This document shows, in pieces, positions 3,410-61,884 of a stretch of DNA of 64,000 nucleotides (its first letter is position 1; every line of letters begins with the position of its first letter). Where the stretch lies: contig CAJINV010000004.1 in the NCBI GenBank assembly GCA_905178155.1, forward strand, positions 8,988,417-9,052,416, written 5' to 3'. Source of the DNA: Amoebophrya sp. A120. Its lineage: Eukaryota > Protista > Dinoflagellata. The translations under genes were made by a program, and so were the position numbers. Below the pieces are notes generated by a model that searched no databases, had not been told where the DNA came from, and saw only the letters and a list, made by a program, of their open reading frames with translations.

Positions 3410-6400
3410 ATGAGCGTCACAAGAAAAGAGTCTAATTCTCCTCCTTCCACCAGGGAAAGGCAAATCCTGGAATTTTGGGTTCCGGAAAGCGAAGGTGATC
3501 AGACGCAGGTGACTTTGTATACGGCCTCAAAATCTGAGTGCAGATACCGGGCTCGGACAACCAGGCAAGACGAACTGCCAGTCGGGGCTCGGACGCTCGA
3601 GGAGATGGTTAAATTAGCGGAAAACTCGATCGAGGCGTTCAGCCGCGCGACAGCAGACCTGAGGCTGGAAAGCGGGCGCGATGGCGCACAGCATGCGGGA
3701 GATACGGCGGACGATGCGTTGCAGTTGCTGGAGTATGTGATCCAAGCAGAAATTGCTTGGGAAGCAAACGGGGAAATAAGGAAGTGTATGATTACTCAAC
3801 ACTACCGCGAGCGAGTTTCCGCTGCACGCGAGGGCTTCAATGCTGCGGTACAGGAATTCACGAGAGTATGAAAGTGCACAACTCCCCCTTCCCCTCATTT
3901 GTCATGCAAAATAGAAATACCCAATCCAGATCCACCCTTTGCCTCTTTGCACTGTTTGCATCACAAGTTCTGGTAGCCCAAATAGCACTACAACCCTGTG
4001 CAAATTTGTCATGCAAAACCGGCATGCTTGCTGATGCTTGTACTGCCGTTCATGCTATACAAATGAGGGGAAGGGGGGGCTGTGCATTGTTATAGAGAGC
4101 CAAGGAAGACCAAGACGCCCGGAATAACCCCATTGTTGGCCGGGCGAGAGCATCAAGAGCGAGTTCTTCGGGTTACTCCCTTTCATCCGACAATAGAGAA
4201 GCTGCGAAGGTCCAGGGGGCCGCGTATGGTCCGGAGTCGAAAATAAACGGCCTCGCGCCGTCGAGCTCGTCTACATTTCGAAGAACAAGGACAGAGCGTG
4301 GTCGAGACCGTAGAGGAAGAAGTGCAGACTCGGATGGAAATAAAGTAGCGACCAGCTCGTGGGATAGGAAAACAGCCGATGATCGAGATAGGAAAACAGC
4401 CGACCGAGGTGAAGGAGGGCGCGAGCGAGATCGAAGGAGCAGTGGGAGATCACGCAGTGCCCGACGCAGAAAGCGAAGTAGCAGAGCGCGCAGTAGACGC
4501 GCCTCCAAGTCGAAGACCGATCGAAAAGCCGCATCACGGTCACGGTCACGGGATCGAGCGGTGTGGAAGCGGTCGGTCGAGGCCCCTCAACAGGGGACTG
4601 GGTTGCTGACGGGAGCGGATGGGAGTGGTAAGTGTATTTTACTTTCTACCTTTTTTGTCGAGTAGCGATGGAGATAAAGCAAAAACGTCATCCAGTTTTA
4701 GAAAACTCGCTGGGACATCTTTTGATCCTCCTCTACATGATTATTACAGGTGCACCAAAAGCAAAACAACTTTCTTCTTCATCAAGTTCGTTGCGGCGTT
4801 CGTACAACACGTCAGCCAAGAAAAGCGAACGGTTTTTGTCGGAGGCGGAACAGGAGCGTGCAGTCTTCATCAACTGGCCCATGCATTACGAGCACGCCGC
4901 CGTCTCACCCGCGGCGGAGGCCGATCACGACTGTATTCGGGAGGAGCTGTTTCGCCGGGTCGGAGGAGAGCATCGCGTCGTAGACTACTATTGCCAGGAC
5001 GAGCACGCTGTGGTTGCGGTGTTCGCTGACGCAGCGGACGTGGAAAAAGTACTTGAGGCGTCGCAGCGCCTGAGTTTATTGGATCCAGAGTACCAGGCCG
5101 ACGCTTTTTCTTACAACCGTGATCGAGCCGCGTCTTCTGCACCTGTTCCGAAGCACGATGCTGGGGCACGGCAATCTGGCTCGTCCGTTCAGCAAGCCGC
5201 TGGAGCTGTTTCCGTTTCATCTGGTTGTGACGTGAAGGAGAAGGAAAAGGAGCAGGACGAGCAGGAGAAAGCAAGAGCAACCGGCAGCAGCAGTGCGCTA
5301 GTAGGAGCCTCTGCCTCCCAGCTAGTTGCCAGAGGCGCTGCCGCGGGAGCCAGTAGCAAAGGCGAAGCTGAAGAAGAGCCACTGGCAAAGCGCAAGAAGA
5401 CCGCTGAGAAGAAAGGCGGAGCCCTAGTAACCAAACGGAATAAGGCAGCTGGGGCGGGGCCTGCGAGTGGAAAAAACGAAGAAAACAACCCGTCCTCCTC
5501 GGCTTTAGGGCGTAGCAAAAGCAAATCGACGCGGGCGGGCGCTTCGTCGTCAGGCAGCGGCGTGCTATGTATAGTGATACAACTCTATGTAATACTAATT
5601 TCTTCTGCAGTAATTATAGAGGCCTTGAGCTACTAGTATTACAAATGCGGATTTCATCTCCTCCTCGTGGCAAGATCTGCATAATATAAAATGAACCAAA
5701 AATTATGTCTCGAAAACGAATAGGCGCCGGCGCGGCATCGAGGCAGACGGGTACGTTAACGGAAGACCTGGCGCAGCAAGTACGGTTGAAAGTTGAGGAA
5801 TTCGTTTTCACCGTTGGCGTAAAGAAGTTGAAAGCCATATAACCTGCTCAGGTGTTACAATCTGAAGCGTTGCAATAGAATATGGAATTTGTGTTGCAAA
5901 ATCCGCAACATCTGGCCTACCCCCAAAGGAGCGCGCATGACAAGTTTCGGAGCCCCAAACCCCATGAGATTCTGACGAAATTTGTATTGCGAAAAGCCCA
6001 AGTCTCTGTATTGTAAAGAGGCTGTTCATGCAAGACAAATTCCAGATTGTATTGTAACGTTTGAGATTGTAACATCTGAGCAAGCCATAAGCCAAGTGTG
6101 CGGAGCTGGGCGTTCGATTGCCGGAACGCACGTCACTTTTACGCGTGCGCTATCAAAATGAAAAATCCCCCGTCCCCATATTAAAACGGAAATTTGTGAT
6201 GCTGATTTGTGGTCAAACATCGTCTTTGTCTTGCATATAGGGTCATAGGAGCCATTTTACGCATTCCAGAGCAAATCTGTCATGCGCTTTCGATATCAAA
6301 TGCAAAAATGTCTGGGTCTGGAAGAATGCAACTTGTAATGCGTATTTCAGAACACAGAAAAGTCTCTCATGCATACGTAGCAAAAGCAGCCACTTTTTGT

Positions 6401-7025
6401 CAGCAAAATAGGGGACTTGTCATGCGGATTCGGCATTGCGGAAGGTTCTCGAAACCTGTGATGCTAGAGCTTCCATGCCAGACCTTCTGTGTCATGCAAA
6501 AACAGCATGAATCTTCCTTTCCAGACCCAGACATTTTTACATTTGATATTCGACTATTGCGAACCTGTACCTGTTTGCCATGCGCAATTGCTAGCCTTCT
6601 GCATACCCAAACAGGCCAAGAAAATGCACCCACGCACCTTCTGCAAGACAGATCTGATTTGTGTACGCAAATCCAGCATCAGAAACTTCGTTTCGATATG
6701 GGGAGGGGGGACTTTTCCTCTCAATATGCGCGCGTACGCGCTGCAGAAATGGAGTAAAACCTTGAAGACAACTGATCGGCCATCTCTACTCACGCTCGAC
6801 GAGTTGCGTCGGCGAATCATGGAGATTGGGAAAACCTTGATTGGGCGTCTAAGTGACCTCGAGGCACTTGAGGAGGCGGGGGCAGAAGATGCGCGGCTGG
6901 AAACTGCCCGCGCGGAGTTGAAGGCGGTGTGGGAAAAATTTGATACCATTAAAAAGGTGACGGATTCATACATCGAGGCAGAAAATCTGCCCAGAGAGGA
7001 GAACGAGGAGGGTTCTCAAAACTGA
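3410..7025 (+). CDS. Paralogue c: helical N-terminus, RS/RD-rich region, RRM-like domain, SAP-like C-terminal domain
   Basis: Frame restored by removing introners 3867-4094, 5838-6089, 6151-6726, a GT-AG intron 4628-4749 and a probable GC-AG intron ~5560-5723. Joins read EFTRAKEDQD, KKLKAKCAELGV, LLRVRAYALQKW. Confidence 0.65.
3867..4094. mobile_element. Introner, family F
   Basis: TIR TATGAAAGTGCACAACTCCCCCTTCCCCTCATTTGT; 5-bp direct repeat GAGAG; excision restores frame. Confidence 0.9.
5838..6089. mobile_element. Introner, family E
   Basis: TIR TATAACCTGCTCAGGTGTTACAATCT; repeat AGCCA. Confidence 0.9.
6151..6726. mobile_element. Introner, family D, carrying a nested family A copy
   Basis: TIR TATCAAAATGAAAAATCCCCC..CCCCATA; repeat TGCGC. 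Confidence 0.9.
6294..6548. mobile_element. Introner, family A, nested in the family D copy
   Basis: TIR TATCAAATGCAAAAATGTCTGGGTCTGGAA; repeat TTCGA. Confidence 0.9.
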
Positions 7026-7632
7026 AAAACTTTTGTACAACTACTGCAGGAAAAGGGAGCAACAAGAACGTAAGCACGCTTGTGTACAACTGGTCGCGAC
7101 TCATCATGAAAAGTGTGAAGCTCCCCCTGACCGCTCGGACTCGCGCCCCTGCGGCCTTTAATTTCGCAGCGAGCAACCAAGTAGCACTAGCCGGCGTGGC
7201 GCGGATTATCGATCCCGCAGTAATTCAAACGTGCACACGCGGCCAGGCTAATTTTCGTCTTCAGTTCGTTGGATGCTTTGCACTACTACCACAAAGTGGC
7301 AATTTTTGTCCTTATAATTTTTTTTTTGAAGAATGGTAAATGTCAGGCTACGCATGCAAAGTATGACTTTCTTCGGCAACAAGCAATAAAGTATGATTTT
7401 CTTCGGCACCGAGGCGCACAACTAAACCGGTATACAGTGGCAGTCAGGCCGACCTAAGTCACAGCCGAGCGAGGACCACGCCCTGACTACGGGAAAAAAT
7501 AGAAAGAAATTTTTTGTATTTCCAATTCCGACTTAGCGCAGCACAAGACGAATTTAGACTTGTTACCTAATAGCATTAGCATTTTCTTTGTTTTCGTAGA
7601 AACACAGCAGTAGAAACACAGCATCTGTCATA

Positions 7633-10600
7633 ATGAGTGTCCGTTCCCAAGAAGGGCCTCCGAATGGTGTGGGGGATGGGAGTAGGGAGGACGACGAGGG
7701 GCATGAATCTGAGGACCCCGACTCATGTCAAGAACATACAGAGGACGATCCGGAGGCGGAAAGCAGGTACCTCCAACTGTATATAAAGATTCCGGACGTC
7801 GAGCCCGAGCTGCAGGAAAAATACGCCGCGCCCTTCAATGCCGGCAGCCGCGCCGAAACCGCTTGGCAAGAGTTGTACGACGACGCCTCTTACCAGGTGC
7901 AAAAGTGTCTGGCTCTGGAAGATTGCCAGGTTTGTCATGCATTTTTCGCATAACCTTTACCTTAACCCGTGAAGATGCCTGTAATGCATGACCTAGCATC
8001 ACAGATTTTCAAAGGGCCTTCTGATGCGTATTCCGCATGAGAAACGCCCCCTCCGTGTAGCACAAACTGAACTCCTCTTGCTGGCCATGCGATACAGATT
8101 ACAGTGGTTGAGGGGTAAAAAAGGTCATGCAATACAGATTTTTTTTACCTTCCAAACGTATTATTGTCACAAATTGCAACCTTCCAGACCCAGACAGTTT
8201 TGCATTTGATACCTCTGAGGAATTGGACAGATTGCTGGGCGAGGAAAGCGGTCTCGAATCTATCTACAAAGGCACCCGTCTATCCTGTGCAAAAGTATCG
8301 CACTCGTAGTAATTGCAATTATGCATGACAAATCTCTTTCTCAACGTAAATTAGCACTACAAATTGAATTTGTAATGCTGGGCTAATTTGTAATGCAGTT
8401 TATACTAGTACGACTACAATACTTTCGCAATGCATACCGTCGGGCCCCCGAGGTGGTGGAGGCGTTCACGAAGGATGAGAAGGGCCGCGACTTCCTGGCA
8501 GCCGCGCTGCGGAGGCGTCCCGCCGCCCTATACCTAGGCGAAAAAGTGAAGGCCACCGTCCACGCCCTGCCGCTGGATTTTGACGCGCTTGAGCCGCTGC
8601 GGCGTTGCGGGTACGCTGCTGACGACAGTGAGTCCGCGGTCTCCACCCTCGAGCGCGCCGTGCTACGCGGCAGCTCCTCCTCCTCGTCTTCTTTATCGCG
8701 CGACGCCGGCGCGTTCCCGGAAGATGACGGCGGCCGAGAGGCACTTGGCTGCCTCGCCCGGGCTGCCGAAGAGCAGCTGCAGGCGTTCCGCGAGGCGTTA
8801 GAGCAGTGCGCACAGCAATTCGGTGCGCCGGGTGCGACAGATTTCCTACCCTCATTTGCCGCGAAGATGGAAGAGAGAGTGCTGGAAATGCAAGAAGAAA
8901 TTGCAATCCACGAGTCCCGGACCAAGCACGCTCTATCCCAGGTCCCGAAGGTGGAGCCCCCGCCGGGCGACGCAGGTAAGCGGTCAGCGTGGCTTTTGTT
9001 AGAGATTCGCCGCGCTCCCTACTTAAGTAGCGACTTTAATACTTCGTATTGCTTCAGCATACCAGATCCTTCCCACTTCGTTCATTCCCCGGGTCGCATG
9101 CTTTGATATCGGAAACAAAAAAAGAATGAGAAAGAGATAAAAGGAGCAACTCATCTAACAGCGCAGTGTCGTACAGCCGCAGCTAGGAGCATATAAAAGC
9201 ATTCAATTTGATGATCACAGGTCGCACCTCAAGTTCCAAGTTAGCTCCGCGAGGCGGGAGAGAGCAGTCGGACGATGAAGTAGAAAAACGAGCTGCTCGT
9301 TCGGAACAGCAAACGGGTCGTGATGAAGAGCGGAAGACGACGAAGAATATTACCGTGAGTGCTCCTATCGCCGCTCCGGCCACAAGAGGGACGTCCATCA
9401 GCAACGCCAACAAGCCAACTACCTCTACTTCCAAACAGGCGGCGCTACCAGAGTCTTCACCAGCAAACCGCCTCAACAGCGGTCTTCCGCTGGCAGGGTC
9501 ATCTACTTCAGGCACAATTCTTGCGGGGGCTTCCTCTACCCGACCGATGAAGCGACATCAAGCGCTTGGTGAGAGTGGGAGTGGAGCGGAAATGATCGCA
9601 GTAGACGAATTTGACGCACCAGCTTCCAAAACGAAAAAGTCCAGGCGTGTGGACGGGCAGGAAGATAAAGACCCTCTGCCGAAGGAGCTCTCGACGAAGC
9701 TTCCAGAAGATGAAAACAGAGCCACCTCCGCCTTGAGTTCGACAGTATTGGAAAAGAAGAAAAAGGACGCGGAAAAAGAAAAACAAGCCAGCTCAAGAAG
9801 TAGTGCAGCTACAAGAACAGGTTTGCGTTGTATAATTTGCGTCTTTTGCTGCAACATGAGTGCTTGTTCATCGACTATAGGTTTTCTGTTGTCGGAGTCG
9901 GTGTAAGTAAGTATCTACATCTAGTGCTCAACATGCCACAGAAAAAGAGACGCGGAACCGCAAAGTTCAAAATGCGCTTAATTTGCGAATTGATGTTTTT
10001 ACACCAGGTCCTCACGATCATGCCCTCGATCGTCCGACGGGAGCCACAAGCAACTCTCGAGGAGGAGATCACGACGACAAACCCCCGCCCCGAAGACCCG
10101 CGGCGCTCTCGAACGACTGCAAATCCAAGGTCGAAGAGGTGCTCATGTTGTCCAGCAACGAAGCGAGAGAACGTTGCGCGAAACATGCCGTGGAGATTGT
10201 TTTTGGAGAGCGCACGGAGATATGTATGGCCCGCCTTCTGAAGCACGAGTTTTCATCCTCGAAGCCCAAAGAAGGCGCTATGAAATGCAAATATGTCTGG
10301 GTCTGGAGGAATGCAAGACGTGTCATGCAGATTTTCATTTTCCATGCCACATCCACATGAAGTTTGGAATGCAGGACTTAGAGTGACAGGGTCTTCGACG
10401 TCTCTATCATGCCTATCCTGCATGACAAACTGCCTCTAAACTTGTTCAAAAGTGTACAGCTTTTGGTAGTCATGCACCACAAATTTTTGTACGATCCAGA
10501 CTTAGCAATAGCATGAAAAGTTCGCGTCCTCCCAAGACCCAGACATATTTGCAATGCATAAGCGCGAAGCAAGTGCAACAACCTCCGCGGGTTCACAGCT

Positions 10601-11717: not shown

Positions 11718-14700
11718 ATGACGACAGACAGACGAGACGACGATGCGGAGCGGTACGCGATGTACGACTACGAAGACAAGGAGTATTCTATTTAAAACGT
11801 ACCCACCCCATAGTTGTAATGCGAATCTGCATGCTGAAAATGTTTCTCATGCGGAGCCCCATGAGAAGCATTTTCTAATCGTGTTTTGCAACTTGTCATG
11901 CTCCAATCAGCATGGTATGCTAGATCTGTGATGCTGCTGAGCTAGCTCAAACAGCACTACACTACGAATCCAAATTTGTCATGCAAAACAGCCAAAACTT
12001 GTGGATTTGTCTAGCCGATTCCCCATCTTGACTATGGTGTGGGGACGTTTTTACTCAGGATAAGGAAGCAATCACCGTTAAGGTTCCCCGGCTTTGTCCC
12101 GCCTCGTCCTCTGCCGGCTCCGGTGAAAATCCCGCCGTGGATGACCGCGTCTTTGACGTTTATTGGAAGGCCACGAAGTACCAACCGCGGGGTAAGATTG
12201 CCCTTTCCGCCAACCGTGTGCGGGAGAACGCGATTAGCATGGGCGCCCTGTTGAAAAAATTCGAAGTCGCTATAACGCAGTTCGACAATGCTGTGTGGGT
12301 TTTCAAAAATTGCAATTCGTCGGCCAACCATGGCGCGCCGGAAGATGTGGAGAAAACGTTGGAGTGGTTTGGCGACTGGGCCTTGGACCTCAAGCAGTTT
12401 GTCGGGTACATCCTGGAGGAGGATGGGAAGAACTCGCACCAAAGCCTCAGTGAAGCGGATTACAACCAGGCCCGCGGTATGGATTGCAAAAATGTCTGGG
12501 TCTGGGAACTTGTGATGCTGAGTGGCGAATCACGAGGACGTCACAAGTGACGGCTCACCATGACAAACTGCGTTTTTGCATGACAGAAAAGTGGAGCTTT
12601 TGGATAGCGTGCATGACACACTTGAGAGTCAGGGTCATGCTAAGCTGAGCATGACAAACTTGCGCGCTTCCAGACCCAGACATTTTTGCATTTGATACGC
12701 GAGTTGAAGCTCATGTTTGAGGAAGCGGCCAGGGACAAAGAGTGGTTAGCGCTCAAGGCCCGGCGGAAAGCAGGTGTCGTGGTGGACGACGACGGCGCTG
12801 TGGAAAAAGCTTCCGGCGGCGAGGCCAGCGCGGGTGCGGGTGCGGGGCAGCCAGGATCTTCATCCGACGACGGTGTTCTAGAAGTACCCGCAGCAACAAG
12901 ACACGGCACGGGCGGTTGCGAGATCAGAGGTGTGTCAACTAGCTCTACATATTTCTTGCTGTGCAAATCCAAATGCAAAAAAGAAGACCATCTTCTAGGA
13001 GTCGTCGCGTGAAGAAATCAATGTACTATCAGTTCCTGCTTTTTCCTCGTTTCTTTCTCTTCAACGTGGTAACCCAGCCCTCAACTTTACGTGCCTGCAA
13101 AATCGAAGGGCCTGCAGGAAAATTTATCTATATCCTTCCACAAAGGCCAAGATAACACTTGGCACGCAGAGTGAGTGACTCTCCTGTCACTCCGCACACA
13201 GCAGTACTGGGTGCCCGTCCACTCATTAGAATGAGAAAAGATAATGTTTATCCCGGACACGCACAAATATGATGATGATGATGATGATGTAAGTTTCTCA
13301 TTCGTCATCTTGAAGGTGCGTCTACTTCGAGCCAGTGTAGAAGTGGTCCGAAGGGGGAACAACAAGACACGAAAGCTGTAGGAGAAGGCTCAACTGAAGT
13401 GAAAGGTCGTTGTGGTTTTCCAGTACGAAAATTTTCGCTCGAGAACGAGCCATCTTTGCGAGAGAAAGACCCTGGGCGCCGCGAGAAGGAGGGCCGTTGT
13501 TCCCATCCGCGTAAGAAGACGGCGAGCAACACTAGGCACCACCAGAGGGGGCACGGTAGGTGGAACAAGAGCAGGGACTACACCAGAGACCCCCGTGGTC
13601 GGGACGACCGCTACGCCGCCGACCGCCGGCGCCGATCGTCTGGTCGAGGAGATAGAAATCGTGACTTCCATCATGGCGGCTCATCGAGGAGGCGAAGCGC
13701 CGGAAGGGGCAGGTCTCGCTCACGAGAGGACCGGGATAAAGACAGAGACCGGAATAGAGATCGCGACCGGGACAAAGATCGAGATTGGAACAAAGGTCGC
13801 GGCCGGGAGAAGGGTCGTCGACACTGGGGTTCGAAAGATCGGGATTGGCGATCGCGAGACCGTTACCCCGACCAGGGTCGCCGGGATGAGCGAGACAGAG
13901 ATTGGCGAGACGACCGAGGCTGGGGCCGTGACGCGGGTGACGCAAGGAATCGGGATCGCGACAGACGAGGGTGTGATGATGACAAAACCGGCGGGGCCAA
14001 GCCTCGGGACCATCAAAGCCGCTGTGGTAAACCAAGTCCGCGCGACAAGCGGAAGCGGTCCCGTGAGGAGCGCCAGCCTTCCTCGAAAGCAGCCGTCGCG
14101 GCAGGAGGTCCTGGCCGCTTACTTACTATGTTATCTTCTGCAGTCGCTACTTGTACTTCTGCTGCAGCCTTGTTTTCTGATGTTTCACTGTTCTGCCGGG
14201 TCGTTCTTTTTACGTAAGATGAAAAAAATACCGGAGACCTGTAGTTGCTTTGCAAGCTAGATAAGGATCGCCACTGTTAAATTGACGCTTTTGTCCCTCA
14301 CCATGAACAGTTCGAGATCGCGATCGTGGCCAGGAGACGGAGCGATGCTGGAAGCTGACGCTTACGAGCCTGTGCATTCTCCCCCCTGGGAAGGCAGAGC
14401 GAGCAGTTTACGTGAGACTCCCAAAGGACTACTTCGCCGCCAGTACTTCATCCAGCGATGCCCGCGACCTACGCATCAGGGAACACGAGTGCATCTGGCG
14501 GGAGCTGTCATCTCGCACTACGGACGCCGAGCGCGCGATCAAGGAGTATTTCTGTGTGTGCGACAAATATGTCGTCGTCGTGTTCAACACCCCTGCGGAC
14601 GCACTGCGAGTCCTAGAAGCCCCTGTGACGCGCGTCGTGCTATCCGATAACATCTCGGTGGCGGACGTGGCTCCTTACAGTCGCGACAGAGCCCGTGGGA

Positions 14701-31151: not shown

Positions 31152-31454
31152 AGTGGTGGTGAAGTAGAAAATAGAACTCCCTTGTCGTTCTAGTTCTTTC
31201 CACCTGTAGGATTTAATATGATGCGTTTCGATTTGGTTTTGGATTTAAAAGAGTGAGAGACAGGAGCAGCGGCGCGCCGAACGCTGGCGGACGAAGATAG
31301 TCAACTAAAGAATAACAGAAATTGATTCGGAACCAACTTCTACGAAGCTTATTCAGATGAATTTCTCTTTGAACAAGTAGTACTTAAGCGAACCAATAAC
31401 GTCCAAAGATCGTAGTTCCGTGTGTGTTGATGAGTTGCATCCTCCCTTACGCTA

Positions 31455-48600: not shown

Positions 48601-51600
48601 GCTGCGTTGACGTCGTCGCGTCCGCAGTCCGGGCGGTCCTCGAGATTGCCGTCTGCCCGCGCTTCGTCCGCTCTCGACGAGGAGGCGGCCTCGCTGCAGG
48701 AACAGTGTGCCTTGCAAATATGTCTGGGTCTGGAAGATTGTGACACTTCTTATGCTAGTTTGGCATGACTCCGAACTCTGTATTGCGTGGCCACGAGGAC
48801 CTCCTCTTGTCTATCATGCAAAAACGAGGTTTCTCATGCGGGATACGCAACACAGAGCCACGAGAAAATCTTTTAATGCTCCTTGGCGGTGCATTACAGT
48901 GCGCTTCCTGTTCACTGACATGCATTACAAGTTTCCAGACCCAGACATATTTGCACTTGATAAGCAGAAGCAGATCGCGATCTCGGCGCTGCGGAACATT
49001 CGGGCGACACTGAGTCGGGCCCGGGGGTCGAACCCGAAAGTAGAGCAAAATCACAGCGTACAGTCAGGCACTTCCGCTGGTGCGGCTGCATATGGTTCAT
49101 CTGTTAGGCGAAACGCATCGAATAGTACGAATTCGCAGCACTACAACGTGGTAGGTGGAGGAGCCGGTGGACATCATCTTCACCAGTTGCATTCATCGGG
49201 AGGAGCTGCAGCAGGTGGACCACTTCTGCACCCACATATTAGCCAGGATATCTCTGTGTCCGCCATGGAATCGCCAATTGTCAACATCGGAGGAGGTGGA
49301 CATCTCCATCATGGAGCAGTCGTGCCACCACAACACCACCTCCAGTCCACTTCCGCCGACAACGACGCGGACAACGTCTTCCGCCACGAATTTTCGAAGC
49401 GGTTAGAGCTCCACTCGAACTTGATCAAGTCTCTCCGCAGTTCGCTCGGGTTCGCGGAATCGGATCACAGTGTGTCCGCGGAAGACGGGGAGTGGTCGAA
49501 CGCGGTCACATATGAGAGTGCACAACTCCCCCTCCCCCTCATTTGTGATGCAAAAACCCAAATCCACATCTTGTCTGTAAGCACAGTGAGCATGACAAAT
49601 TTTGGAACCACAAACAGCACTACAATCGTCCGTGTGTAGATTTGTCATGCGCAGGCCCCATTTGAGCTGGTGTCTGTATTGCTGCTCATACCATACAAAT
49701 GAGGGGGAGGGGGAGTTGTGCAATCTCATATCACACCCCGCGTGTTTCCCGAGCAAGCATCGTCTACTTCCGGAGGTGGCGTTTTTCCGGTCACGACTGG
49801 TGGACCTGCAAATTCCGGCGGGCCGCTGCTTTCCCCCCGGCACCATGGCAAGATAAAGGTGGTCGCGGTCGCACACGAAGCTGCGGTGGCTTCCGCGCCC
49901 GTCGTGCCGCTCTCCGCGACCGCGACGGCACGACAAAGCTCGGCTTCGGATACAAATGTTGCCAGAAACAAGCAGCTTCCGACAACTAGTACCCCCGGTG
50001 GATCCGGAGTCACGAATATCCGTCCGATTATGTTGGACGTGAAGTCTACTTCCGTGGGAGATGAACAGCACCTCCAGGGTAGTAAGAACAACACCACCTC
50101 CTTCTACCCGCAGGCCCCGCTGACGGCACGGACCTCCTCCGATGCGGCGGTAGTGACCGATGCAGAGGGGGTTCTTCCTGGAAATCATGCTGGGGGCGTG
50201 TATTTACCCACGCCGGGTGGATCGGCTGCTGGTGCTGTTGGGGCAGCAGGAGTTCCAGCAGCAGGAGCGGGATCTTCGTCAGCTGCAGCGATCAACATGG
50301 TCCCCACGACCGGGGGTGCATCTTCGAGTGCCTCCCCGCACAGTTCTTCGCAGCAGCAAATATCTCTACAAGTTCATCATCCCACTGAAGTAGGCCAGAT
50401 GAACGTTGTTGACGACGAAGCCGCCGCGGGGACCGGAGGGACGGTGGTGGAGGAGGCAGGGCCCTCTTCCAACACGGCAGCCTCGCCGAAACAGCAACAG
50501 GAACGGTTTCTGTTCTACGAACCCGAGAAGATTGCGCAGCGAATGGCTTATTTGGAGGACCTATGGATTGCAAATATGTCTGGGTCTGGAAGAATACAAA
50601 CTTGCGATGCGCATTTCAGAACACAGAAAAATGTCTCATGCATAGGTAGCAAAAGCTGCCCACTTTCTGTCATCAAAATAGGGGATTTGTCATGCGGATT
50701 TGGCATTGCGGAAGCTTCTCGAAACCTGTGATGCTGGAGCTTCCATGCCAGACCTTCTGTGTCATGCAAAAACAGCATGACTCTTCCAGACCCAGACACT
50801 TTTGCATTTGATAGGGCCGAGTCAGCCGGTTCTGCAACGGGGAGGACATTTCGCCGAGAAAGCCGGCGACGCACTGGGAAGAAGAAGAGGGGGAGGACAT
50901 TATAGACGGTGCTGGCGGCATTCTTGATGCAGGTAACAAGAATAGGACCAGTAATCATAGTGAAGGTCTTGTTGATCTTGTCCCACCACCTCTTTTTCAG
51001 TCGCAGAACAAAGAGGTTTTTACTAGTGCCGCTGCCGAATCCGGCTCAGTCCCACGACAAGGGGGTTTCGGATCTAGCATCACCACAATCGCCGGCGACA
51101 GCGCAGCGCACAGTGCAACGACCGCCGACTGCACGGAAGAATCGACAGCGATCATTCTACAGCGGCTAGCCGCACAGGAAGCATCCTCTTCCTCGTCTAG
51201 CGAGGTGTTGGATCATCACTACGGTCAGGCAGGGCCGCACGACCCACGACATGTCACCGGCATAATACCAACGTGTGACGGCGGCACTGGAACAGGTATG
51301 GAGGAGGGGAATCCTCAACTAGAAGGACGACAGTACTACAACTCTGAACAAGAAGAGCAACAAATGTTAAACCAGAACTGGCACCAGGCGCAGACTGCGC
51401 AGGAGGGACTGCCGGATACCCCCTGCTCCGCCTCGGTCGAGGAGATTTTGCGATCCGGGGCGGCCGGCCCAGACCCGGCGGTGCTATCAACTCTCCGGGA
51501 AATTCGGCAAGGCAACTTCACTCTGGAAGGCCATCTTCTCGTGGCACAGAATCTGCATCAAGGACCAATTGGTGTCCCACCATCGGCGCAAGGAGTAGAC

Positions 51601-54482: not shown

Positions 54483-57400
54483 ATGGGCAAAAAGAAGAAG
54501 GAAGAGCAGACCAAGGACGGCGAGCCGCCGTTGCAAATCGGCGAATCCTACCGCGGGCTGCCGAGAGAGGTGAATGACCAGCTGCTCCGCGAGGCCGTCC
54601 CAACCGCCGAGGAGCTGAGGCAGCACGGCACGGCGTTCGCGGATACGAAGCGAGAGCAGGTCCGCGCGGAGCACGGACTCAAGTCCGTGTCCGATGAGAA
54701 TCGAAAATATGAACTGCAAAAGTATCGTACTAGTAGTAATTGCAATACAAATTAGCTCAGCATGACAAATGGAATTTGTCATGCTGTTTTGCCTTCGGAT
54801 GGAGATTTGTAATGCAAGACTTGCATTTATACGAGTTTAACGCTGGACCAGGCGGTGTCAAATTGAATTCAAAACGAATTCAAAATGAATTCAAAAAGTG
54901 GGCACTTTTGAAATGAGCCACATTCCGCGATGCCCTGGACTCTCAGCGGTTGCTGCCCCAGCAGCTTTTGGCGACCTGGTAGCGCCGCTGCCTGCTGGCT
55001 CATTGGCTCGGGGGACGGGCTCAACCCGAAGGGCTGCTCCGCACCGTACTAGGAGTGTTGCTGAATGATGACCGAGGGCCAGAGCGATGCGCTCTGGTTC
55101 ACTTTCCGGCATACGCCCGCATCGCCTGCGAAGGGCGACGGCGCTCTGTCGTGGCTTACTATTTCGCGCCACTTTTGTGTAGCGCCTGTCTGACACTGGT
55201 GGCGGTTTAGTCATTCCCGCGGCCGGCGCTATTATTGGCTTTGGCACTCCGGGCAGGAACACTACAACAGGCCCGCACGGGCGCAGAAGGGGGCTGCGCT
55301 TGTTTGCGGCGCTAATTTGGGATCGGCGCAACAATTCTAAAGTTCATCGGGGAGTGGATCTCAATTTCAAAGTCCATCCGATCGACCGGCCCCAATTCAA
55401 ACTCCATCCGGACGACCGGCCCCAATTCAAAACCCATCCGGACGATCGGCCCCAATTCAAACTCCATCGGGGCCATCGGGGCAAATTCAAAACTCATCCG
55501 AATTCTGTCCGAATTCCGTCCGAATTTTGTCCCCTACTTGGGTTCTTGATTCGGACGGATTCTGACAGAATTCGGATGGATTTTGAATTGGTGGGGGATG
55601 GGATTTTGTGGTCCGGGCCACCAGAGTTGTGCCTCCAGTCGACTTCACCTACCGAGACCAGCCTGGGCGATCTTGGGTGGCTGACCGCATTGGGAATCGC
55701 GGCCGGGGATGGCCTCGCCCCTGGCGGCATTTTGTCCACTAGCGTCACATGCAATATGCACAGGCTGACTTGCTTGAGCGCTCGCCGGGCCAAGCCGCGA
55801 CCCCGACACCGAGGCCAGCCATGCTCCTAACCGCATGCGCCGGCCCCCGACGGTTTCCGGCATTTTTCCGTGGTTGGGCAGGGTCTTCTCTTATTACACC
55901 GGCAGCACCCCCCTGGCGCCGAGCCGGGTTTCAAGTCTCGCAAGTTAAGGCATGATAACAAACTTCGGCCGCCGGTCGAACCAAAGCGCGTTCGCCCCAT
56001 TTCCCGGAAGCTCCTTCGCATGGTTGGATCCAGTTGCCGTTTCGCGCCTGGTCCGCTGGACCAAGCACAGGGCGCAGCGTTCGTGTGAAAGCGGCTACAG
56101 GCCGTTTTCTATGGCTGTCGCGCGCCGCATTTGTTTCGCCCGATTCGCCCCCTCGGAGGGGCGTTTTTTTGAAAATGCCAACTTTTTGAATCCAGTTTGA
56201 ATTCCGTTTGAATCACGATTACACTCCGAGCGGTCTAGAGTTAATACGAGTACGATACTTTTGCACAGGATAGAAAACGCGACACTGCGATGTACTACCA
56301 GCCGATGCCCTATGGATGTGTCAGGATCGAAATTAATCGACAAAGTCGAAAAATTTGTGATGCATAAAATGTAGAGCACTGAAGGCCGGTATTGGGGAGA
56401 AGGCATCTGAGACCGATTGTAAGCCTGTTTAGGCGTATACAATGTGCTGCCAGAGTAGCATGACAGGAGCAGCCTTCTTTGCCCAAACAGCATGACAGAC
56501 TGGATTTGGGTGCTCCCGAAATTTCTCATGCGCCACTTGGAAACTGAGGCTCCAACTGGCATCGATTTTGTGCATCACAAGTTTTTCGATTTTGCGAATT
56601 TCGATTCTGACGCTTCCATATGCCCGGGGAGGACGGCGCGGTTAAGCCGGTGCCGACGCAGGGAGAAAAAGTGGACCCCAGTACGGAGAAGGGAAAAGCG
56701 GCACCGCCAGCGAAAGCCCCGTCAGGGACGAACAAGATAACACCAAAGCCCCTCGATCTCCAAGCGGACTCCGTGCAAGCCCCGTTGGAACCAGAAACTC
56801 CCATGGCGGACCGGATCAACGCACACAAATCCGTGTCCCGGGCGACCACGCCGAAGGGGGAACACAAAAAAATCTCCGAAACCGCTCTGGATTCCATCTC
56901 CCAGCAGCAGCATTCCGGCGCGAAAAAAGGGGTTTTGAAGAAAGAGGAGTCCAAGGGAGCCAGTTCCGATCACGGTACCTCAGAGAACAAAACGGGGACC
57001 GGGGGCAGTTCCAGTTTCCGTGCTATCAAGGAGCGGACCGCAAGACTGAAGGAAGCCCGGAAGCAAGCCAGGATAAACACAGGGCTGACGGCCAAGGGAA
57101 GGTACGACCGGGTCATGCACCAGAGAAACGAAGGGAGAAGCTTTCGGAAGGTAAGATTTAGTAACTTTTGTATAGAGGTGTACACTTTTACGAATACTAC
57201 CCATATCGAAATAGGCAGTACCTCGGCAAAACATTTGTAAACCACAAAATAATGCCAACATCAGGGAATGCCTATTCTGTCCGAGACCATTGAGTTCACC
57301 CTCGAGCGCATGAAGGACCACTACAAAGAGCAGGAAGATGCGGGAAAGATGACGAAACGCGCCCTCCGGGAGCGGCAGAAGGGCATCAAGAAGGAGAAGA

Positions 57401-60400
57401 TTGACAAGAACAGCCTGGAAAAGATGTTCATGACGTTTCTCGCGGTCTTCAAGGCCATCGTCTTCCACCATGTGTTTCTACGCATGGCAAAAGTATCGTG
57501 CTAAGTAGTAATTGCATCACAAGTTGTTGGGTCGGCATGACAAATAAAATTTCTGATGCGAATTTAGCTTTAAGAAAGAGATTTGTATTGCATCTCTGCA
57601 ATTCCAATTTACAACTAGAACTACTGCGAGCACGATCCTTAATTTGCAATGCATAGTTTCCGAACATAAATAACAACCTCGGCATGCGGATGATCTTCGA
57701 GCGGATTCTGCCCTGCATCGAATTCCCCCTCCACTGGCTCGCGGTGTTCTGCGAACCGCAGTTGGGGTACAGCATGGGACAGATGTGTCCCTACAACCCC
57801 GGCTACGACGAATCCGCCGACGCAATCGACCCCATCGAGGGCATCCCGAAGGGCGAGCCGCTCGTGGACACGTTTCCCTTCGCGGCGCCGGTCTTTGGCG
57901 TGCTGTTTCCGTATCTCTGCGTGTTCTGGGTGTGGCGGAGGGCGATTCCTTATGTTCGATTGCGGATTTTGTCGAACAAGTATCAAACTGAAAAATGCCG
58001 CCACCCCCGAACTTGGGAGCATTTGTATTGCAAACCTTTCCAAATGAAGCAGTCGCGTTCTTGTATCTATCAGCATCACAGATTTTCAATCGTGAAGAGC
58101 AAAAATTTGTATTGCAAAAGACCCCAGCAAGAGTGGCGCTTGTCATGCAAGTGATGCGATACATGACTAGACTCTGCATCAGAAAGATTCATACTTCTTT
58201 CATGCATGACAAAAAGTTTTCATTTGGAAACTTCGCGTCACAAGTTTTTGCGACTTTGGGCGTGGGGGCATTTTTCACTGTAATAACAAACACCTGGTGA
58301 TCGGAATGCTTCTCTGCCGGTCGGTTCTTATATCAAATGCAAAAATGTTTGGGTCTGGAAGAATGGGCGATTTGTCATGCAGCTTTTCCATGACCCATGA
58401 GGTCTGGAATGCAGGGCCTAGCGTGACAGATTCTGCGCGATCTCCCTCATGCCTATCCTGCATGAGAAACTCCCTCCCGACTTGGTCAAAACTGGACGAC
58501 GTTTGGGAATCATGCAACACAGATTTTTGCATGCTTCAGATTTAGCATGACAAGTTGGATTCTTCCAGACCCAGACATTTTTACATTTGATATCTCACCG
58601 TGAAGCGCAATCCGGCCTCGGTGCAAGTCGGTATGGGCGTGGATGGCGACGACGCGATGCTGACCACGTTCTCCTTAACCTCCTGGCTGATAATAGGACT
58701 GCCATTAGTGTATTTGATCGACATATCCCACGAAAAAACTGTTTCACTGTGATGGTTTTGCAAGATCCGCATCACAAGTTTGCTACACATGACACAGGAA
58801 ATTTGCCATGCGCGCATTTTCCATAGGGGAAAACACGCTTGAAACTCCAATGTTCTATGCAGGTGTAGCAAGACAGATACTTCTGTGCTCCATTCTATGC
58901 ATCACAAGTTCACAGTGAAACAGTTTTTTCTTGCGATGCGACACCATCATCTTCCTCTGCTTCTTCCCCTTCCGCGAGCCGCCGAACTTCTATGCAATGC
59001 AAAAGCATCGTACTAGTACAAATTGCATCACAAATTAGCCCAGCATTACAAATTGAATTTGTAATGCTAATTTGCCTTGAGAAAGAGATTTGTAATGCAT
59101 ATAATGCAATTAGAATTACTACCGGTACGATACTTTTGCACAGGATAACTTCCTCGCCGCGACCAAATTCTTCAAGGCGCAACTGATGATGATCTGCGGG
59201 AGCCCAAGTTTCATCCTGTTCGACGTGATCCTGATCACGAGCGAGGGCCCGGGAGGCCCAAGAGAAAAGACCTTCGCGATACTGGGACTCTTGGTCAGCA
59301 TCTGCACGCTGTGGTATTTTATTTTATTCGGCAGTTCCTCTTTCGAATTCGAAGTTGCATCACCATGATCGGCAGCATTGCATGTTTCGTATACAGCTTT
59401 TCCCACCACTTCTGTCCATGCCGCTGGTCGTAATTGCCACAATCGAAACACCAGTACGGAAATGCTTAAAAACTTGAATTTTTCCTATCAGGTTCACCAT
59501 CCTCCGCGTTTCTCAAGTTGCGTACCGCAACCTCATCACTATGTGGGAGGTCATCCTGCTCACCTCCCGCATGGGCAAGGGCACCGGGGGCGACTCCATA
59601 TCCGCGGTGAGCAAAGCGAAGCAGGCGGACATCGCAGCCGCGGCAGCGAGGATATTCCCGCCCTTTTTCATCGTCATGGCGCAAATGAAAATCTGCAGTC
59701 TGGAACACGAGAAATACGTGATCAACGAAAACGAGTTGGCGCAGTTGGGCCACTGTCTGTTCAACAACATTTACATCAAGCACCTGGTGATTCCCTCGAC
59801 CTGCTGCAAGAACCTCGTGAAAGCGGGCTACACGCTGTTCGACGCCATCGAGCATTGCGTGATAAAGATGGACAACTGCGTGCTGGAATCCTTCAACTGG
59901 TTCCCCATCATATGAAAGTGCACAATAACCGAAACCCCCCTTCCCCTCCGTGCTCGTTTGTCATGCGGAAGACTGAGTTCGTCTTCGTTGTAAGTGTAAC
60001 CAATAGATGGCCGGCGCCGGTTTTGGCACTCTACACAACATGTTGACCATTCATTATTCCATGCAGTCCTAGTAGGACTGCGGTCGATCAACATGTGCGG
60101 CTGCAGCTTGTGCTTGTTACTAGGCCTGAATGAAGGGGACGTGGGGGAGCTGTGAAATCTCATACGTCAAAGACATTCTGTACAAGCCAAACCTCGTTTT
60201 CACGATGGACCGATACAGGTACGAATGCTGATAAAGAAGCTCTTCATGTTGCTGTCAATGGCATTGCAATGCAGAGGCTTTTGGATATTTTTCATTTCTT
60301 GTTTAAATCCGACCTCGGTCTTCGAAATAGCATGACAGGAGAGCAATGCATCGGCCCAAACCACCACCATAAAAATCAATACACTCAACACCACAGGTAC

Positions 60401-61884
60401 GGCCACGAAAAGCTGAACCTCCAGTACGAGATGTCTTTCACGGATTCCTGCTACTACCTCGCCGCTGGCGAGCGGATGCAGCAGCCTTGGACTGATTTGG
60501 AGGCCATAGTGTTCTGCCGAATGATGCCGTACAACAAAAACTTGGTCCATCTTGACCTCTCCTCGAACCTGCTGAAGGACTACGGCTTCATGGCGCTGGC
60601 GGAATTATCCTGTGCAAAAGTATCGTACTCGTATTGCAATCATGCATTACAAATCTTTTTCTCATAGGTAAATCAGCATTACAAATTTTATTTCTCATGC
60701 TGAGGAAATTTGTAATGCGTTTATACGAGTACGATACTTTTGCAATTTATAGGAATTCCTTTTCTGCAACTCCCAGCTGAAACTTTTGAACATCTCCAAC
60801 AACGACCTGGACGGGTTGCAAGACCGGACGCTGGACACGCTACTGGACGCCGTGGTTTCGCACCCAAGGTTAGAGTCCGTGCAGTTCTCCGCGAATACGA
60901 TACAGCTTCCGATTCGCGACTTCGAGGACGTCGAGGTGCTGAAGTGGGACGCCTACTATCCTGTGCAAAAGTATCGTACTCGTATTGCAATCATGCATTA
61001 CAAATCTTTTTCTTAAGGTAAATCAGCATTACCATTTACAAATTTTATTTCTCATGCTGAGGAGATTTGTAATTGTAATGCATTTATACGAGTGCGATAC
61101 TTTTTTAGTGTATACCTACAATGTGTACACGATCAACGTGAACCAGATCGTGGGGCGCGTGGTGGAGTTAGTCTTAGAAAACCAGCTTTCCTTCGATAAT
61201 TTCCCTCCCCATTGCCGGTTCGACCACTACTGCACCATCATCCAAAACGCTTTAGCGAACGACATGGCGCTGGCGAGACAGGTGTCCTGTAGCCTCCACC
61301 CGAAGTTGCGGCGATTCGTCGCGGAGCGGTGTGCGAAGAAGTTGGGGCACCCCTTGGGGAACGACCCCGAGGACTTGCTGGACCTATACGTGAAGGACAG
61401 TCGGAAAGTGAAGCAACTGACGAAGAAGGAGAAGGCGAGCCGCGACGATTTGTACCTGCCGCCGAAGGACCGGATCGTGATCAGCGTTTTAGGGTCGCTA
61501 GAGGGGATGGCGATGGCCATGACGCTGCGGTTCTCGCGGCACTTGCGAGAGATTTTTTTGGAGGGAAACCGGGTCTCGGACCGCGGGGCGGAGATGTTTT
61601 TTCGTCTTCTCTGCGAGCCGGGGAATGTCGTAGAAATGCTGTCGCTAGCCAATAACGACATTGGGTACGCGAGGAATAACTATGTCAAGGGCAGAGCGGT
61701 AAAGTGGCTCCAGCGAGTGCTCCAGCTGCCAGAAGCGAACCCGATGCTGCAGCAGATAGATTTGTACCAAAACGACGCCTTTGTCGCGTTTGAGCGGGAG
61801 ATTCGGGTGTGGGTCATGGCGCGGCCGCAGTCAGACGAAATTATGCCGCTGGAGTGCAACGTGAAGAGGGGGATGCGCGGCTGA
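54483..61884 (+). CDS. Multi-pass membrane protein with C-terminal RNI-like leucine-rich repeats (~1110 aa), 14 exons
   Basis: Ten introners plus GT-AG introns 57151-57264, 59314-59491, 60219-60396 give 3333 nt in frame. LRRs: LVHLDLSSNLLKDYG, LKLLNISNNDL, LREIFLEGNRVSDRG, VEMLSLANNDIG, LQQIDLYQN. Confidence 0.78.
54841..56240. mobile_element. Non-autonomous piggyBac-like element with TTAA target duplication
   Basis: TTAA at 54837-54840 and 56241-56244; ~70-bp imperfect TIRs starting CGCTGGACC / CTCTAGACC; no transposase ORF. Confidence 0.75.
55331..55500. repeat. 30-bp minisatellite (~6 units) inside the TTAA element
   Basis: CCCAATTCAAACTCCATCCGGACGACCGGC-like units, followed by an inverted repeat at ~55483-55589. 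Confidence 0.85.
56311..56620. mobile_element. Introner, family H
   Basis: Repeat TGCCC. Confidence 0.9.
57479..57655. mobile_element. Introner, family B (diverged)
   Basis: Repeat GTTTC. Confidence 0.85.
57981..58285. mobile_element. Introner, family K (D-like ends)
   Basis: TATCAAACTGAAAAATGCC...GGCATTTTTCACTGTAATA; repeat ACAAG/ACAAA. Confidence 0.88.
58331..58592. mobile_element. Introner, family A
   Basis: Repeat TCTTA/TCTCA. Confidence 0.9.
58724..58938. mobile_element. Introner, family G (opposite orientation to 30531)
   Basis: Repeat CGACA; right end ...ATG. Confidence 0.9.
58991..59147. mobile_element. Introner, family B
   Basis: Repeat ACTTC. Confidence 0.9.
59911..60164. mobile_element. 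Introner, family F (diverged)
   Basis: Repeat CATCA/CGTCA. Confidence 0.85.
60606..60751. mobile_element. Introner, family B
   Basis: Repeat GGAAT; join ALAEFLFCNSQL within an LRR. Confidence 0.92.
60957..61114. mobile_element. Introner, family B
   Basis: Repeat CCTAC; very similar to 60606-60751. Confidence 0.9.

Follow-up and report, generated by a model that had tools for sequence, protein, structure and literature searches.

INTRODUCTION

Internal binding sites are found in Mu, IS21 and the P-element, 5-bp duplications are made by Tn7 and Mu, and in some bacterial elements host architectural proteins aid end synapsis.

Subterminal arrays of transposase-binding sites are described for piggyBac/piggyBat, Tol2, Ac, Tag1 and Tn7 in the available part of PMC11707139. 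[quoted passage not shown] (2021, PMC7789003) describes A120 as having neither a recognised transposase nor a family-specific end motif. There, A25 alone, and not A120, is reported to have putative transposases, and the authors argue against a general mobilisation by transposases. The supplement of Gozashti et al. (2025, PMC12130899) annotates A120 family 38 as 'Ginger; 5-bp TSD, TA/TA termini'; in the part of the paper available to us, this family is without the termini and duplications expected of Ginger.

Here we analyze a 64,000-nt stretch of the A120 genome (hereafter, the window), for which it had been predicted that a single internal motif is shared by 11 otherwise unrelated element families and is bound by a common trans factor.

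RESULTS

Elements of the window

Using inverted ends and direct repeats as boundaries, we recognised 48 elements that fall into 11 families; three boundaries were set by hand. The strict motif, TTGTNNTGC, is a 9-letter word that was scored on both strands; pairs such as 3/2 below give its forward/reverse matches in each element.

3867..4094, family F, 3/2; first site 3899; perfect 5-bp duplication
5838..6089, family B, 2/2
6151..6726, family D, holding a nested A; 2/0 outside the nested copy
6294..6548, family A, nested in D, 2/0
7891..8211, family A, 1/0
8281..8436, family E, 2/2
10279..10560, family A, 0/2
11784..12062, family C, 3/0, sites in one orientation only; left end hand-set
12478..12697, family A, 1/1
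18801..19039, family I, 2/1
19087..19354, family A, 1/1
21061..21212, family E, 2/0; 31-bp pair at 21125 and 21156
21720..21967, family I, 2/2; ends hand-set, target duplication ambiguous
22563..22814, family B, 0/1; removed in RNA contig
23165..23416, family A, 1/2; removed in RNA contig
23632..23784, family E, 1/1; removed in RNA contig
24030..24280, family A, 2/0, interior sites all forward; removed in RNA contig
24351..24499, family E, 2/1; removed in RNA contig
24542..24854, family H, 2/1; removed in RNA contig
26163..26424, family A, 1/1; removed in RNA contig
26496..27393, family B with a motif-free insert (about 26665-27325), 3/2; removed in RNA contig
27482..27803, family D, 2/1; removed in RNA contig
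27855..28066, family J, 1/2; removed in RNA contig
28384..28532, family E, 2/0; removed in RNA contig
28577..28836, family A, 0/2; removed in RNA contig
29417..29672, family A, 1/3; removed in RNA contig
29814..30135, family D, 1/0; removed in RNA contig
30531..30739, family G, 3/0; removed in RNA contig
35129..35277, family E, 2/1
35305..35559, family A, 1/3
35925..36204, family C, 3/0, sites all forward on the sense strand
36250..36528, family C, same gene as 35925, 0/5, strong sites all reverse on the sense strand; removal deduced solely from the reading frame
36614..36887, family A, 1/2
38513..38663, family E, 1/0
41709..41869, family E, 1/2
48706..48962, family A, left end TGT, 0/1
49511..49730, family F, 2/2
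50562..50813, family A, 1/0
54708..56272, family E with a 1.4-kb motif-free insert, 2/2; spliced, skip 1570
56311..56620, family H, 1/1; spliced, skip 315
57479..57655, family E, 1/2; spliced, skip 182
57981..58285, family K, 3/1; spliced, skip 310
58331..58592, family A, 1/1; spliced, skip 267
58724..58938, family G, inverted relative to 30531, 0/2; spliced, skip 220
58991..59147, family E, 2/2; spliced, skip 162
59911..60164, degenerate family F, single site; right end hand-set; spliced, skip 259; retained-intron contig in one sample
60606..60751, family E, 1/2; spliced, skip 151
60957..61114, family E, 1/1; spliced, skip 163

The inverted repeats begin with TAT, continue with variable bases and then enter an A-run (family-weighted A frequency 0.64–0.91 at positions 11–15). 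Target duplications were perfect in 39 of the 48 elements, with 8 mismatches in 235 positions when the element at 21720 is left out; a sixth base matched in 16 and 6 of 48, which is near chance, so that the duplication is 5 bp long. Its composition is slightly GC-rich, and 320 distinct 5-mers were counted among 382 duplications. Copies at least 90% identical share on average 1.16 of the 5 duplication bases (63 pairs), unlike tyrosine-recombinase elements with arm-type site arrays, whose direct repeat is a crossover overlap that travels from donor to target.

As is characteristic of MITEs, the elements are non-coding, occur as many dispersed copies in both orientations and are flanked by a duplication of fixed length and no fixed sequence; judged by these features, they would be non-autonomous TIR DNA transposons inserted by a DDE-type reaction. 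All 47 top-level elements of the window sit within coding frames. Lengths near 106, 149, 209, 252–260, 278, 305 and 320 nt agree with listed A120 families, and by their ends and lengths the elements match the published A120 introners.

The motif is confined largely to elements

We found that 130 of the 150 strict matches in the window lie inside the TAT…ATA bodies of the 48 elements (11.6 per kb), compared with 20 outside them (0.39 per kb), and that dinucleotide shuffles of the bodies (n = 500) yielded a mean of 3.9 and a maximum of 10. At least one match was found in each of the 48 elements and in each of the 11 families. For replication, 334 elements were called blind to the motif in assembly JACKZZ01, at the 151 loci left from 158 fetched once 7 overlapping ones had been dropped; the caller demanded TAT and a duplication match of at least 4 of 5, and made 0 calls in shuffled DNA. 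These elements hold 833 strict matches (10.1 per kb), spread over 324 of the 334, and the motif is present in 20 of 23 external elements that could not be assigned to any window family. By weight matrix, strong sites were absent from 2 of 326 external elements. The presence of the motif in every family and its excess over a composition-matched background are therefore as predicted, and the motif is confirmed as real. All eight strings that had been given as examples were likewise located in the families named (F 3896, D 6191, C 11813, G 30561, H 56352, I 18840, K 58021 and A 6332).

The full motif is longer and degenerate, approximately A-R-A-Y-Y-T-G-T-[C/A/G]-A-T-G-C; at position 5, C, A or G interchange and T was seen in 3 of 235 sites. 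An element holds about 3–6 sites (4–6 by weight matrix), often in same-strand pairs with a spacing of 31–33 bp. A/T runs precede the sites. Strict matches numbered 0 in two nested foreign inserts of the window (2,057 bp), motif sites numbered 0 in a 3.6-kb recombinase region, and in a 1.1-kb TAT…ATA element at locus L022 the sites are confined to one end.

The motif had been described as apparently rare in exons. In the non-ORF DNA of the window, 2 strong sites in 19 kb correspond to background level; exons too are at background, but they do not avoid the motif, since the ORFs (31.3 kb) contain 11 matches compared with 5.8 ± 2.1 in synonymous shuffles.

The motif core is conserved above its surroundings

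In 8 of 8 family alignments, core columns scored 0.86–0.97 compared with 0.62–0.80 for other interior columns. In each of four identity bins, drawn from 110 disjoint nearest-copy pairs, the core differed 0.29–0.42 times as often as other interior positions, in line with the prediction that the motif is kept better than its neighbours. Of 553 comparisons at the G of TGC, 9 showed a difference, compared with a rate of 12.5% for interior positions outside CpG; this G and the C of TGC are the best-kept bases, and the A-run changes at about the background rate. The core is thus under selective conservation. In close copies, core divergence (29/1038, 2.8%) resembled the mismatch of target duplications (7/340, 2.1%; P = 0.56), a weak neutral yardstick because part of the duplicated sequence is exonic and calling was limited to duplications with 4 or more of 5 bases matching.

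We further compared element interiors with motif sites masked, over 45 family pairs. Homology was found for F–B (z = 11.3), F–I (7.3), D–H (7.1), I–B (5.7), C–F (5.0), E–D (4.7) and C–I (4.4), and the interiors form the groups F/B/I/C, D/H and G/J, with G and J in one cluster. The description of the families as otherwise unrelated is accordingly wrong for most of them, and since partly homologous families are not independent samples, the P values given here are too generous. Family A, the largest, and family K displayed no detectable spacer homology to any other family, yet carry the motif.

Sites are spaced regularly and occur on both strands

A same-strand pair 30–32 bp apart is present in 241 of 326 external elements, compared with 42.6 ± 6.2 (maximum 65) in 1000 null runs. 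The first site begins about 32 to 55 nt inside the element, a range of about 20 nt, and has its centre near 37, 47 or 57 nt from the end, with a best period of 10.2 bp (P about 0.0006 versus uniform placement); in families F, I and B, first sites lie at 37, 47 and 56–57 despite their common interior sequence. The start 30–45 nt inside the end that was originally described is seen at 51 of the 96 ends of window elements and at 411 of the 652 ends of external ones; 12 of the 48 window elements show it at both ends. A helical reading of this spacing is not unique: a lattice of about 16 bp fits the whole set of site pairs as well as or better than one of 10.4 bp (0.48–0.49 versus 0.41–0.43), family I has no 31-bp pair (0/9), the sites of family E point outward, the first sites of family A lie at 37 and 44–46, i.e. 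7–9 apart, and element lengths overall show no helical period.

Both orientations within one element hold for 29 of 48 window elements (strict) and 285 of 326 external elements (matrix), and not for the remainder. On the sense strand, forward and reverse counts were 255 and 243 for strict matches (198 elements) and 432 and 438 for matrix sites, with nearly equal base frequencies; among 196 oriented elements, 12 were forward-only and 10 reverse-only, the latter lacking a strong sense-strand TTGT-first site. Mirror sites at the two ends do not covary at position 5 (76 of 202 equal, 80.6 expected). Together with the interchangeable bases at position 5 and family C, in which nearly all sites share one orientation, this looks like sequence recognition rather than pairing.

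Elements are removed from RNA at their ends

In contigs from runs presumed to be RNA, which also lose GT-AG introns, all 25 testable elements were removed as the element plus 5 nt; 10/10 joints were read directly, and 15/15 followed from exact length arithmetic on one contig. Splice points stay at the element ends though the distance to the first site varies. The family F element at 59911, which has only one site, is spliced, and one sample of the two also yields a retained-intron contig (retention in X4–X6, a single sample, 12–15% as judged from contig depth; none among those listed for X3). Its terminal stem is among the weakest (-22.7 kcal/mol) and its duplication is mismatched; this retention is one hint that the motif marks elements for removal, confounded by the weak ends.

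DISCUSSION

A proposed shared mobilising protein

Arrays of fixed spacing, strand symmetry and a conserved core fit the arrayed end sites of a transposition protein, and we consider it probable that the motif represents putative double-stranded DNA sites for a single mobilising protein that the families share, likely a DDE transposase related to integrases or its accessory subunit. Such a protein would load cooperatively on the arrays, roughly on one helix face, and bring together both ends of a 110–320 bp element. For its catalytic site, TAT at the terminus and an A-run at positions 11–15 may suffice; elsewhere the inverted repeats could then vary from family to family, and one enzyme could move many families. 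The motif would be under selection for its effect on transposition, not for any effect on the host. A transposase was detected neither in four window ORFs scanned with Pfam, nor in long elements, nor by a crude motif screen of 516 ORFs at external loci. The common trans factor that had been proposed is favoured by the arrays, their strand symmetry and the conserved core, and stays inferential; it may be a transposase or a host DNA-binding helper, which these data do not distinguish.

The second of these, a host protein that binds or bends double-stranded DNA and either helps end synapsis or marks chromatin, recruiting unconventional splicing machinery co-transcriptionally, seems unlikely, though it fits the symmetry, spacing and conservation. 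It would explain why family-specific inverted repeats enclose a common interior word and why no A120 transposase is reported in the available text of PMC7789003, and the sole single-site element is the one with a listed retained-intron contig. That element, however, also has the weak stem and mismatched duplication; moreover, the comparison of close copies gives no sign of constraint after insertion, and with the motif at background outside elements, no host sites are evident in the window. Rather doubtful is a combination, in which a single host-encoded DNA-binding protein reads the phased arrays, brings the ends together for a transposase that is unrecognised or domesticated, and also marks the insert for U1-independent removal. 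If this were true, the motif would act across the genome as a licence that ties mobility to tolerance, with which very many families with freely drifting inverted repeats could invade exons harmlessly.

It is improbable that the motif acts in RNA, either bound by a protein in the pre-mRNA or by pairing of its copies, to direct removal. The location of the elements in coding frames and their exact removal would suit this possibility, as would the two orientations held by most elements, so that either strand presents a site, and the available parts of two papers report that U1 snRNA was undetected in Amoebophrya (PMC7789003) and that Euglena nonconventional introns use an internal signature (PMC12501133). 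However, sense-strand sites are unbiased in number and form, mirror sites do not covary, exons are not depleted, and cut sites are fixed at the ends while the distance to the motif varies. The reverse-only elements include C 36250, which lies in an intact frame (its splicing being deduced from that frame), and the single-site element at 59911 is still spliced. The Euglena signature is found no more than 4–8 nt from the boundaries and pairs, whereas the present motif lies at least 30 nt inside. The licence that had been proposed for tolerance in exons consequently finds little support, and we infer that RNA removal would depend on the element ends, i.e. the terminal stem and the duplication.

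Equally improbable is a relic of one ancestor built of 16- or 32-bp units, or a phased A-tract bend, in neither case bound by a specific protein: masked-interior homology, the G and J cluster, the 16-bp lattice and the A/T runs before sites agree with it, but descent alone would not yield a 2.4- to 3.4-fold lower core substitution during ongoing divergence, the G and C of TGC are kept better than the A-run, and families A and K carry the motif without spacer homology, so that as a sole explanation it is largely refuted.

The shared mobilising protein thus remains our preferred reading. A word common to every family seen suggests one system and one protein, recognising a word inside the element rather than family-specific inverted repeats. 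The motif could serve as bait for the mobilising protein, motif and spacing together as a signature for an autonomous partner, and the motif as a way to separate transposition signals from splicing signals.

Comparison with known systems

Among integrase-related DDE transposons, the TA..TA termini of IS3EU/GingerRoot are matched here, but the duplications there are 6 bp, against 5 bp here. TDD-4 and TDD-5 (Ginger2/TDD) make 5-bp duplications, as here; Ginger2 has TGTNR ends and an AT-rich target, compared with TAT ends and slightly GC-rich duplications here. The elements are assigned to no superfamily. Euglena nonconventional introns, in the available part of PMC12501133, resemble the A120 elements in being non-GT-AG, with paired ends and an internal signature across unrelated introns; that signature, however, has a polarity, lies close to the boundaries and is needed for splicing by genetic evidence, whereas the A120 motif is deep, multi-copy and strand-symmetric. 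A splicing code of the Euglena type is disfavoured: the motif is not strand-polar, keeps no fixed distance to splice sites and shows no sign of pairing.

Subterminal arrays, as the available part of PMC11707139 describes them, are repeated short sites in both orientations, often end-asymmetric, inside the terminal repeats and thought to aid synapsis. Short repeated near-end sites conserved above their neighbours are also what we observed. There, the protein is known and binding has been shown, whereas the candidate sites here are known from sequence; the A120 sites, moreover, lie at least 30 nt from the end, fill the whole short element and cross families despite inverted repeats that, TAT and the A-run apart, differ. 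With the A120 introners of PMC7789003 and PMC12130899, as far as the available texts go, the elements share the TAT start, the less-conserved bases and the run of three or more A, as well as 5-bp direct repeats (legend of Fig. S19) and non-canonical splice ends; the 3–5 nt direct repeats at exon/intron boundaries by which introners are recognised are found here. Those texts and supplements, figures aside, describe ends and repeats, and in them we found no report of an internal motif, a spacing rule or cross-family interior homology; nor did the other literature searched mention the motif. The elements and the idea of subterminal arrays are already known; the spacing rule and the first-site distances are new here.

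Distribution of the motif in introner elements

Using inverted ends and flanking repeats, we delimited 48 elements in 11 families (three ends were set by hand) within a gene-dense, eukaryotic window, in which + strand genes are broken by short elements starting with TAT and ending with ATA. A perfect 5-bp direct repeat was found at 39 of these 48 elements. All example strings of the original prediction were located in the window, and the motif proved to be common to all 11 families as claimed, with at least one strict match in every element and family. The sequence TTGTNNTGC and its complement yielded 150 window matches, 130 of which lay in element bodies (11.6 per kb) and 20 outside (0.39 per kb), and there were no matches in two foreign inserts; under a dinucleotide-type null, 500 shuffles gave a mean of 3.9 and a maximum of 10 matches in bodies. 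The motif had also been described as rare in exons, which holds as a low density outside elements and not as avoidance, as exons contained 11 matches compared with 5.8 ± 2.1 expected. Iteration of a weight matrix broadened the motif to approximately ARAYYTGT[C/A/G]ATGC, with 235 sites scoring 7 or more. It resembles Pumilio elements and the composite Sox–Oct site of animals, presumably by coincidence.

An external set was obtained by scanning for the family A end pattern; the 158 loci found in this way all belong to assembly JACKZZ01 (7 overlapping loci were dropped). The set represents a single assembly, and half of it is family A by construction. A motif-blind caller, limited to TAT…ATA copies in which 4 or more of the 5 repeat bases match, identified 334 elements in these loci and none in shuffled DNA. 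Strict matches numbered 833 and were present in 324 of the 334 elements, and 20 of the 23 elements that could not be assigned to a window family carried the strict motif. One external locus contained a 111-nt near-palindromic TAT…ATA element without a strong motif site, nested in an H element (L018:1641-1751); its size is close to that of the 'palindromic' A120 families 14 and 56 (PMC12130899).

Relationships among families and terminal repeats

The families had been regarded as otherwise unrelated, a view that we reject: several share interior sequence, and G and J cluster together. When sites were masked and spacers compared (45 pairs), F, B, I and C were alike at z values of 4.4–11.3, D and H at 7.1 and E and D at 4.7, and families A and K had no spacer match to any other family. 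Given this interior homology, the number of independent groups is about four or five. Families with related interiors have different inverted repeats, with first sites at 37 nt in F, 47 nt in I and 56–57 nt in B; at the ends, what all families share is limited to TAT, a C or G in position 4 and a run of A at positions 11–15. Pairing between the inverted arms often fails at positions 4–7 (72–135 of 198 paired) and holds at positions 1–3 and 9–14, which leaves the terminal stem with a conserved bubble. An excess of G·U pairs was sought in the terminal stems and was not found (194 G·U compared with 165 A·C, P = 0.14).

Conservation of the core

Core columns showed conservation of 0.86–0.97, compared with 0.62–0.80 for other interior columns, and the core was higher in 8 of 8 family alignments. 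Among 110 disjoint nearest-copy pairs, in which a site was counted when either copy had the motif, differences in the core were 0.29–0.42 times as frequent as in the rest of the interior, whichever identity bin was considered. The G of TGC differed in 9 of 553 comparisons, compared with 12.5% at non-CpG interior positions. The motif observation is real: both a lack of enrichment and a core no better kept than its neighbors were to count against the motif, and we found it enriched and its core better kept. Core divergence in close pairs (29/1038) was not below the duplication mismatch (7/340; P = 0.56), which fits selection during transposition only, the duplication being a weak yardstick.

Spacing of sites

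We analyzed site architecture in the 326 external elements not exceeding 340 nt; 8 longer ones were excluded. No site center lay within 30 nt of an element end, and first sites were grouped at 36–38, 44–48 and 56–59 nt from the end; in the window, the predicted placement 30–45 nt inside each end applied to 51 of 96 ends. The best period of the first-site distance was 10.2 bp (P of about 0.0006 against a uniform distribution, a generous value because families are not independent). A same-strand pair 30–32 bp apart occurred in 241 of the 326 elements, compared with 42.6 ± 6.2 by chance. However, a lattice near 16 bp fitted all site pairs equally well as or better than 10.4 bp, family E sites point outward, the 30–32 bp pair is missing from family I (0/9), and no helical period was found overall in element lengths, all of which speak against a clean helical picture. 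In a scan of viral contigs, 18 stretches with the 31-bp pair contained no dense arrays (0–4 matrix sites each) and were treated as chance; L162 had five strict matches and no strong matrix site.

Removal of elements from RNA

When top-level elements plus 5 nt were deleted in silico, 47 of 47 junctions were open in + frames, compared with 34–39 at other offsets; the test rests on this comparison, since the − strand control was weak (36/47 in ORFs). One 2,129-codon + frame obtained in this way contains 17 elements. All 47 top-level elements lie inside + strand reading frames, although such frames account for no more than roughly two thirds of the window after splicing, which points to strong exon targeting or retention. 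RNA-like contigs confirm removal as element plus 5 nt: 10 of 10 elements in 54300–62000 were skipped in this form (four runs, two samples) by contigs that also drop GT-AG introns, and 15 further elements fit one 5,616-nt RNA-like contig exactly, by length. None of the runs that contain the window sequence is recorded as RNA. If one rule applies to all elements, three mismatched duplications (57981-58285, 58331-58592 and 59911-60164) put the splice cut between bases four and five of the left repeat. The intron would then start one base before TAT and end four bases past ATA, so that its first dinucleotide would be N-T, with GT arising solely where the repeat has G as its fifth base.

Several further features of the window were observed. 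The 1,565-nt E element containing a 1.4-kb insert (about 54836-56237) is still spliced exactly; the insert, whose inverted ends are imperfect and start with TTAAC and whose duplication measures 6–7 bp (by eye), is a different transposon class without motif sites. A B element holds a 660-nt motif-free insert (about 26665-27325), for which raised depth in the DNA-like run X1 suggests a repeat. Summed contig depth in X1 was ~557,000 at 19323 and ~269,000 at 36480, compared with ~50 where the sequence is unique, a hint that families A and C have thousands of copies, although summed depth itself is no copy number. Window exons were not covered at 90% identity by the raw RNA runs X9 and X10, whose reads match family A and family C ends joined to foreign sequence (window 19268-19354 and 36119-36288) and may derive from a diverged lineage sharing these families. 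Similar gene fragments in two runs (about 3310-10900 and 11700-19500, by eye) suggest that a block of genes was duplicated in tandem long ago; the introners are placed differently in each copy. The window ends in tandem arrays with units of 19, 15 and 16/8 nt (63300-64000).

Level at which the motif acts

Gene strand was assigned for 152 of the 334 external elements (113 of 113 agreed within loci) and for 46 window elements. On the sense strand, we counted 255 forward and 243 reverse strict matches, and 432 forward and 438 reverse matrix sites with nearly equal base frequencies; two flank positions differed at P of about 0.03–0.04, uncorrected. Among 196 elements, 12 were forward-only and 10 reverse-only. 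The fifth base was equal in 76 of 202 mirror sites, compared with 80.6 expected, and pairing does not explain the conservation because this base shows no covariation.

We consider it probable that a single putative mobilizing protein would load on the arrays in double-stranded DNA and, once bound, bring the element ends together, with the catalytic step requiring just the short terminus common to the families. The 5-bp duplications are random and not common to close copies, which points to a putative DDE enzyme. It is unlikely that the arrays are read by a host DNA-binding helper. The original prediction had also offered a host protein that marks the element for removal, which we considered as a licence acting on RNA. 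In its favor, F 59911, a family F element with a single site, was the only one in 54300–62000 with a full-length retained contig among the contigs listed, its retention was 12–15% by contig depth (three runs, one sample), and no reverse-only element was seen directly spliced. However, the stem of F 59911 is weak as well and its duplication mismatched, this element is spliced with just one site, the sense strand shows no bias, and exons do not avoid the motif. Moreover, if the splice cut is placed uniformly, splice points follow the ends, whereas the distance to the motif has a range of about 20 nt. We therefore regard such a licence as highly improbable. That the motif is a relic or a DNA bend seems equally doubtful.

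Search for a putative mobilizing protein

Pfam returned no families for four window ORFs. Screening elements up to 12 kb for a transposase yielded only nested copies and one 1.1-kb element without a convincing ORF, and a short-motif transposase screen of 516 external-locus ORFs gave only three isolated weak matches. The 1.1-kb TAT…ATA element (L022:505-1608) has a perfect 5-bp duplication and an H-like left end with motif sites; its right half consists of simple repeats without motif sites. The available portion of PMC7789003 reports no transposase in A120. One window ORF was considered as a candidate:

31604-32881, + strand, tyrosine-recombinase-like ORF of 425 codons (very high Atlas score; no Pfam hit)

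Phage_integrase occurs in 21–24% of members of the Atlas clusters that it matched. Copies of a repeat, about 45 nt long, lie near 31455 and 32733, and another repeat recurs at about 33920 and 35019; the ORF possibly belongs to a DIRS- or Crypton-like element that extends to about 35040 and has no motif sites. We ruled it out as the mobilizer because duplications are not inherited between copies.

Comparison with known systems

The introner elements themselves are already known. The motif, shared, conserved and spaced as it is, and the homology of interiors across families appear to be undescribed, and we found no report of the internal motif in the literature searched, to which subscription papers and figures did not belong. 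Comparable subterminal or internal binding arrays occur in Mu, IS21 and the P element. The termini of IS3EU/GingerRoot fit the window elements, but its 6-bp duplication does not (5 bp here), and for Ginger2/TDD the agreement is confined to how long the duplication is in TDD-4 and TDD-5. Among the 58 A120 introner families of PMC12130899, family 38 has integrase-like ORFs together with TA ends and a duplication of 5 bp, and family 65, which is of Mutator type and spliced, has GG/CC ends and a duplication of 8–9 bp. As far as the accessible parts of the sources describe them, the introners of Amoebophrya sp. A120 (PMC7789003, PMC12130899) have the same ends, repeats and lengths as the window elements, the intron code of Euglena is polar and near the boundary (PMC12501133), and the motif arrays, judged here by sequence, would work in the manner of the binding arrays that known DNA transposons carry subterminally (PMC11707139).
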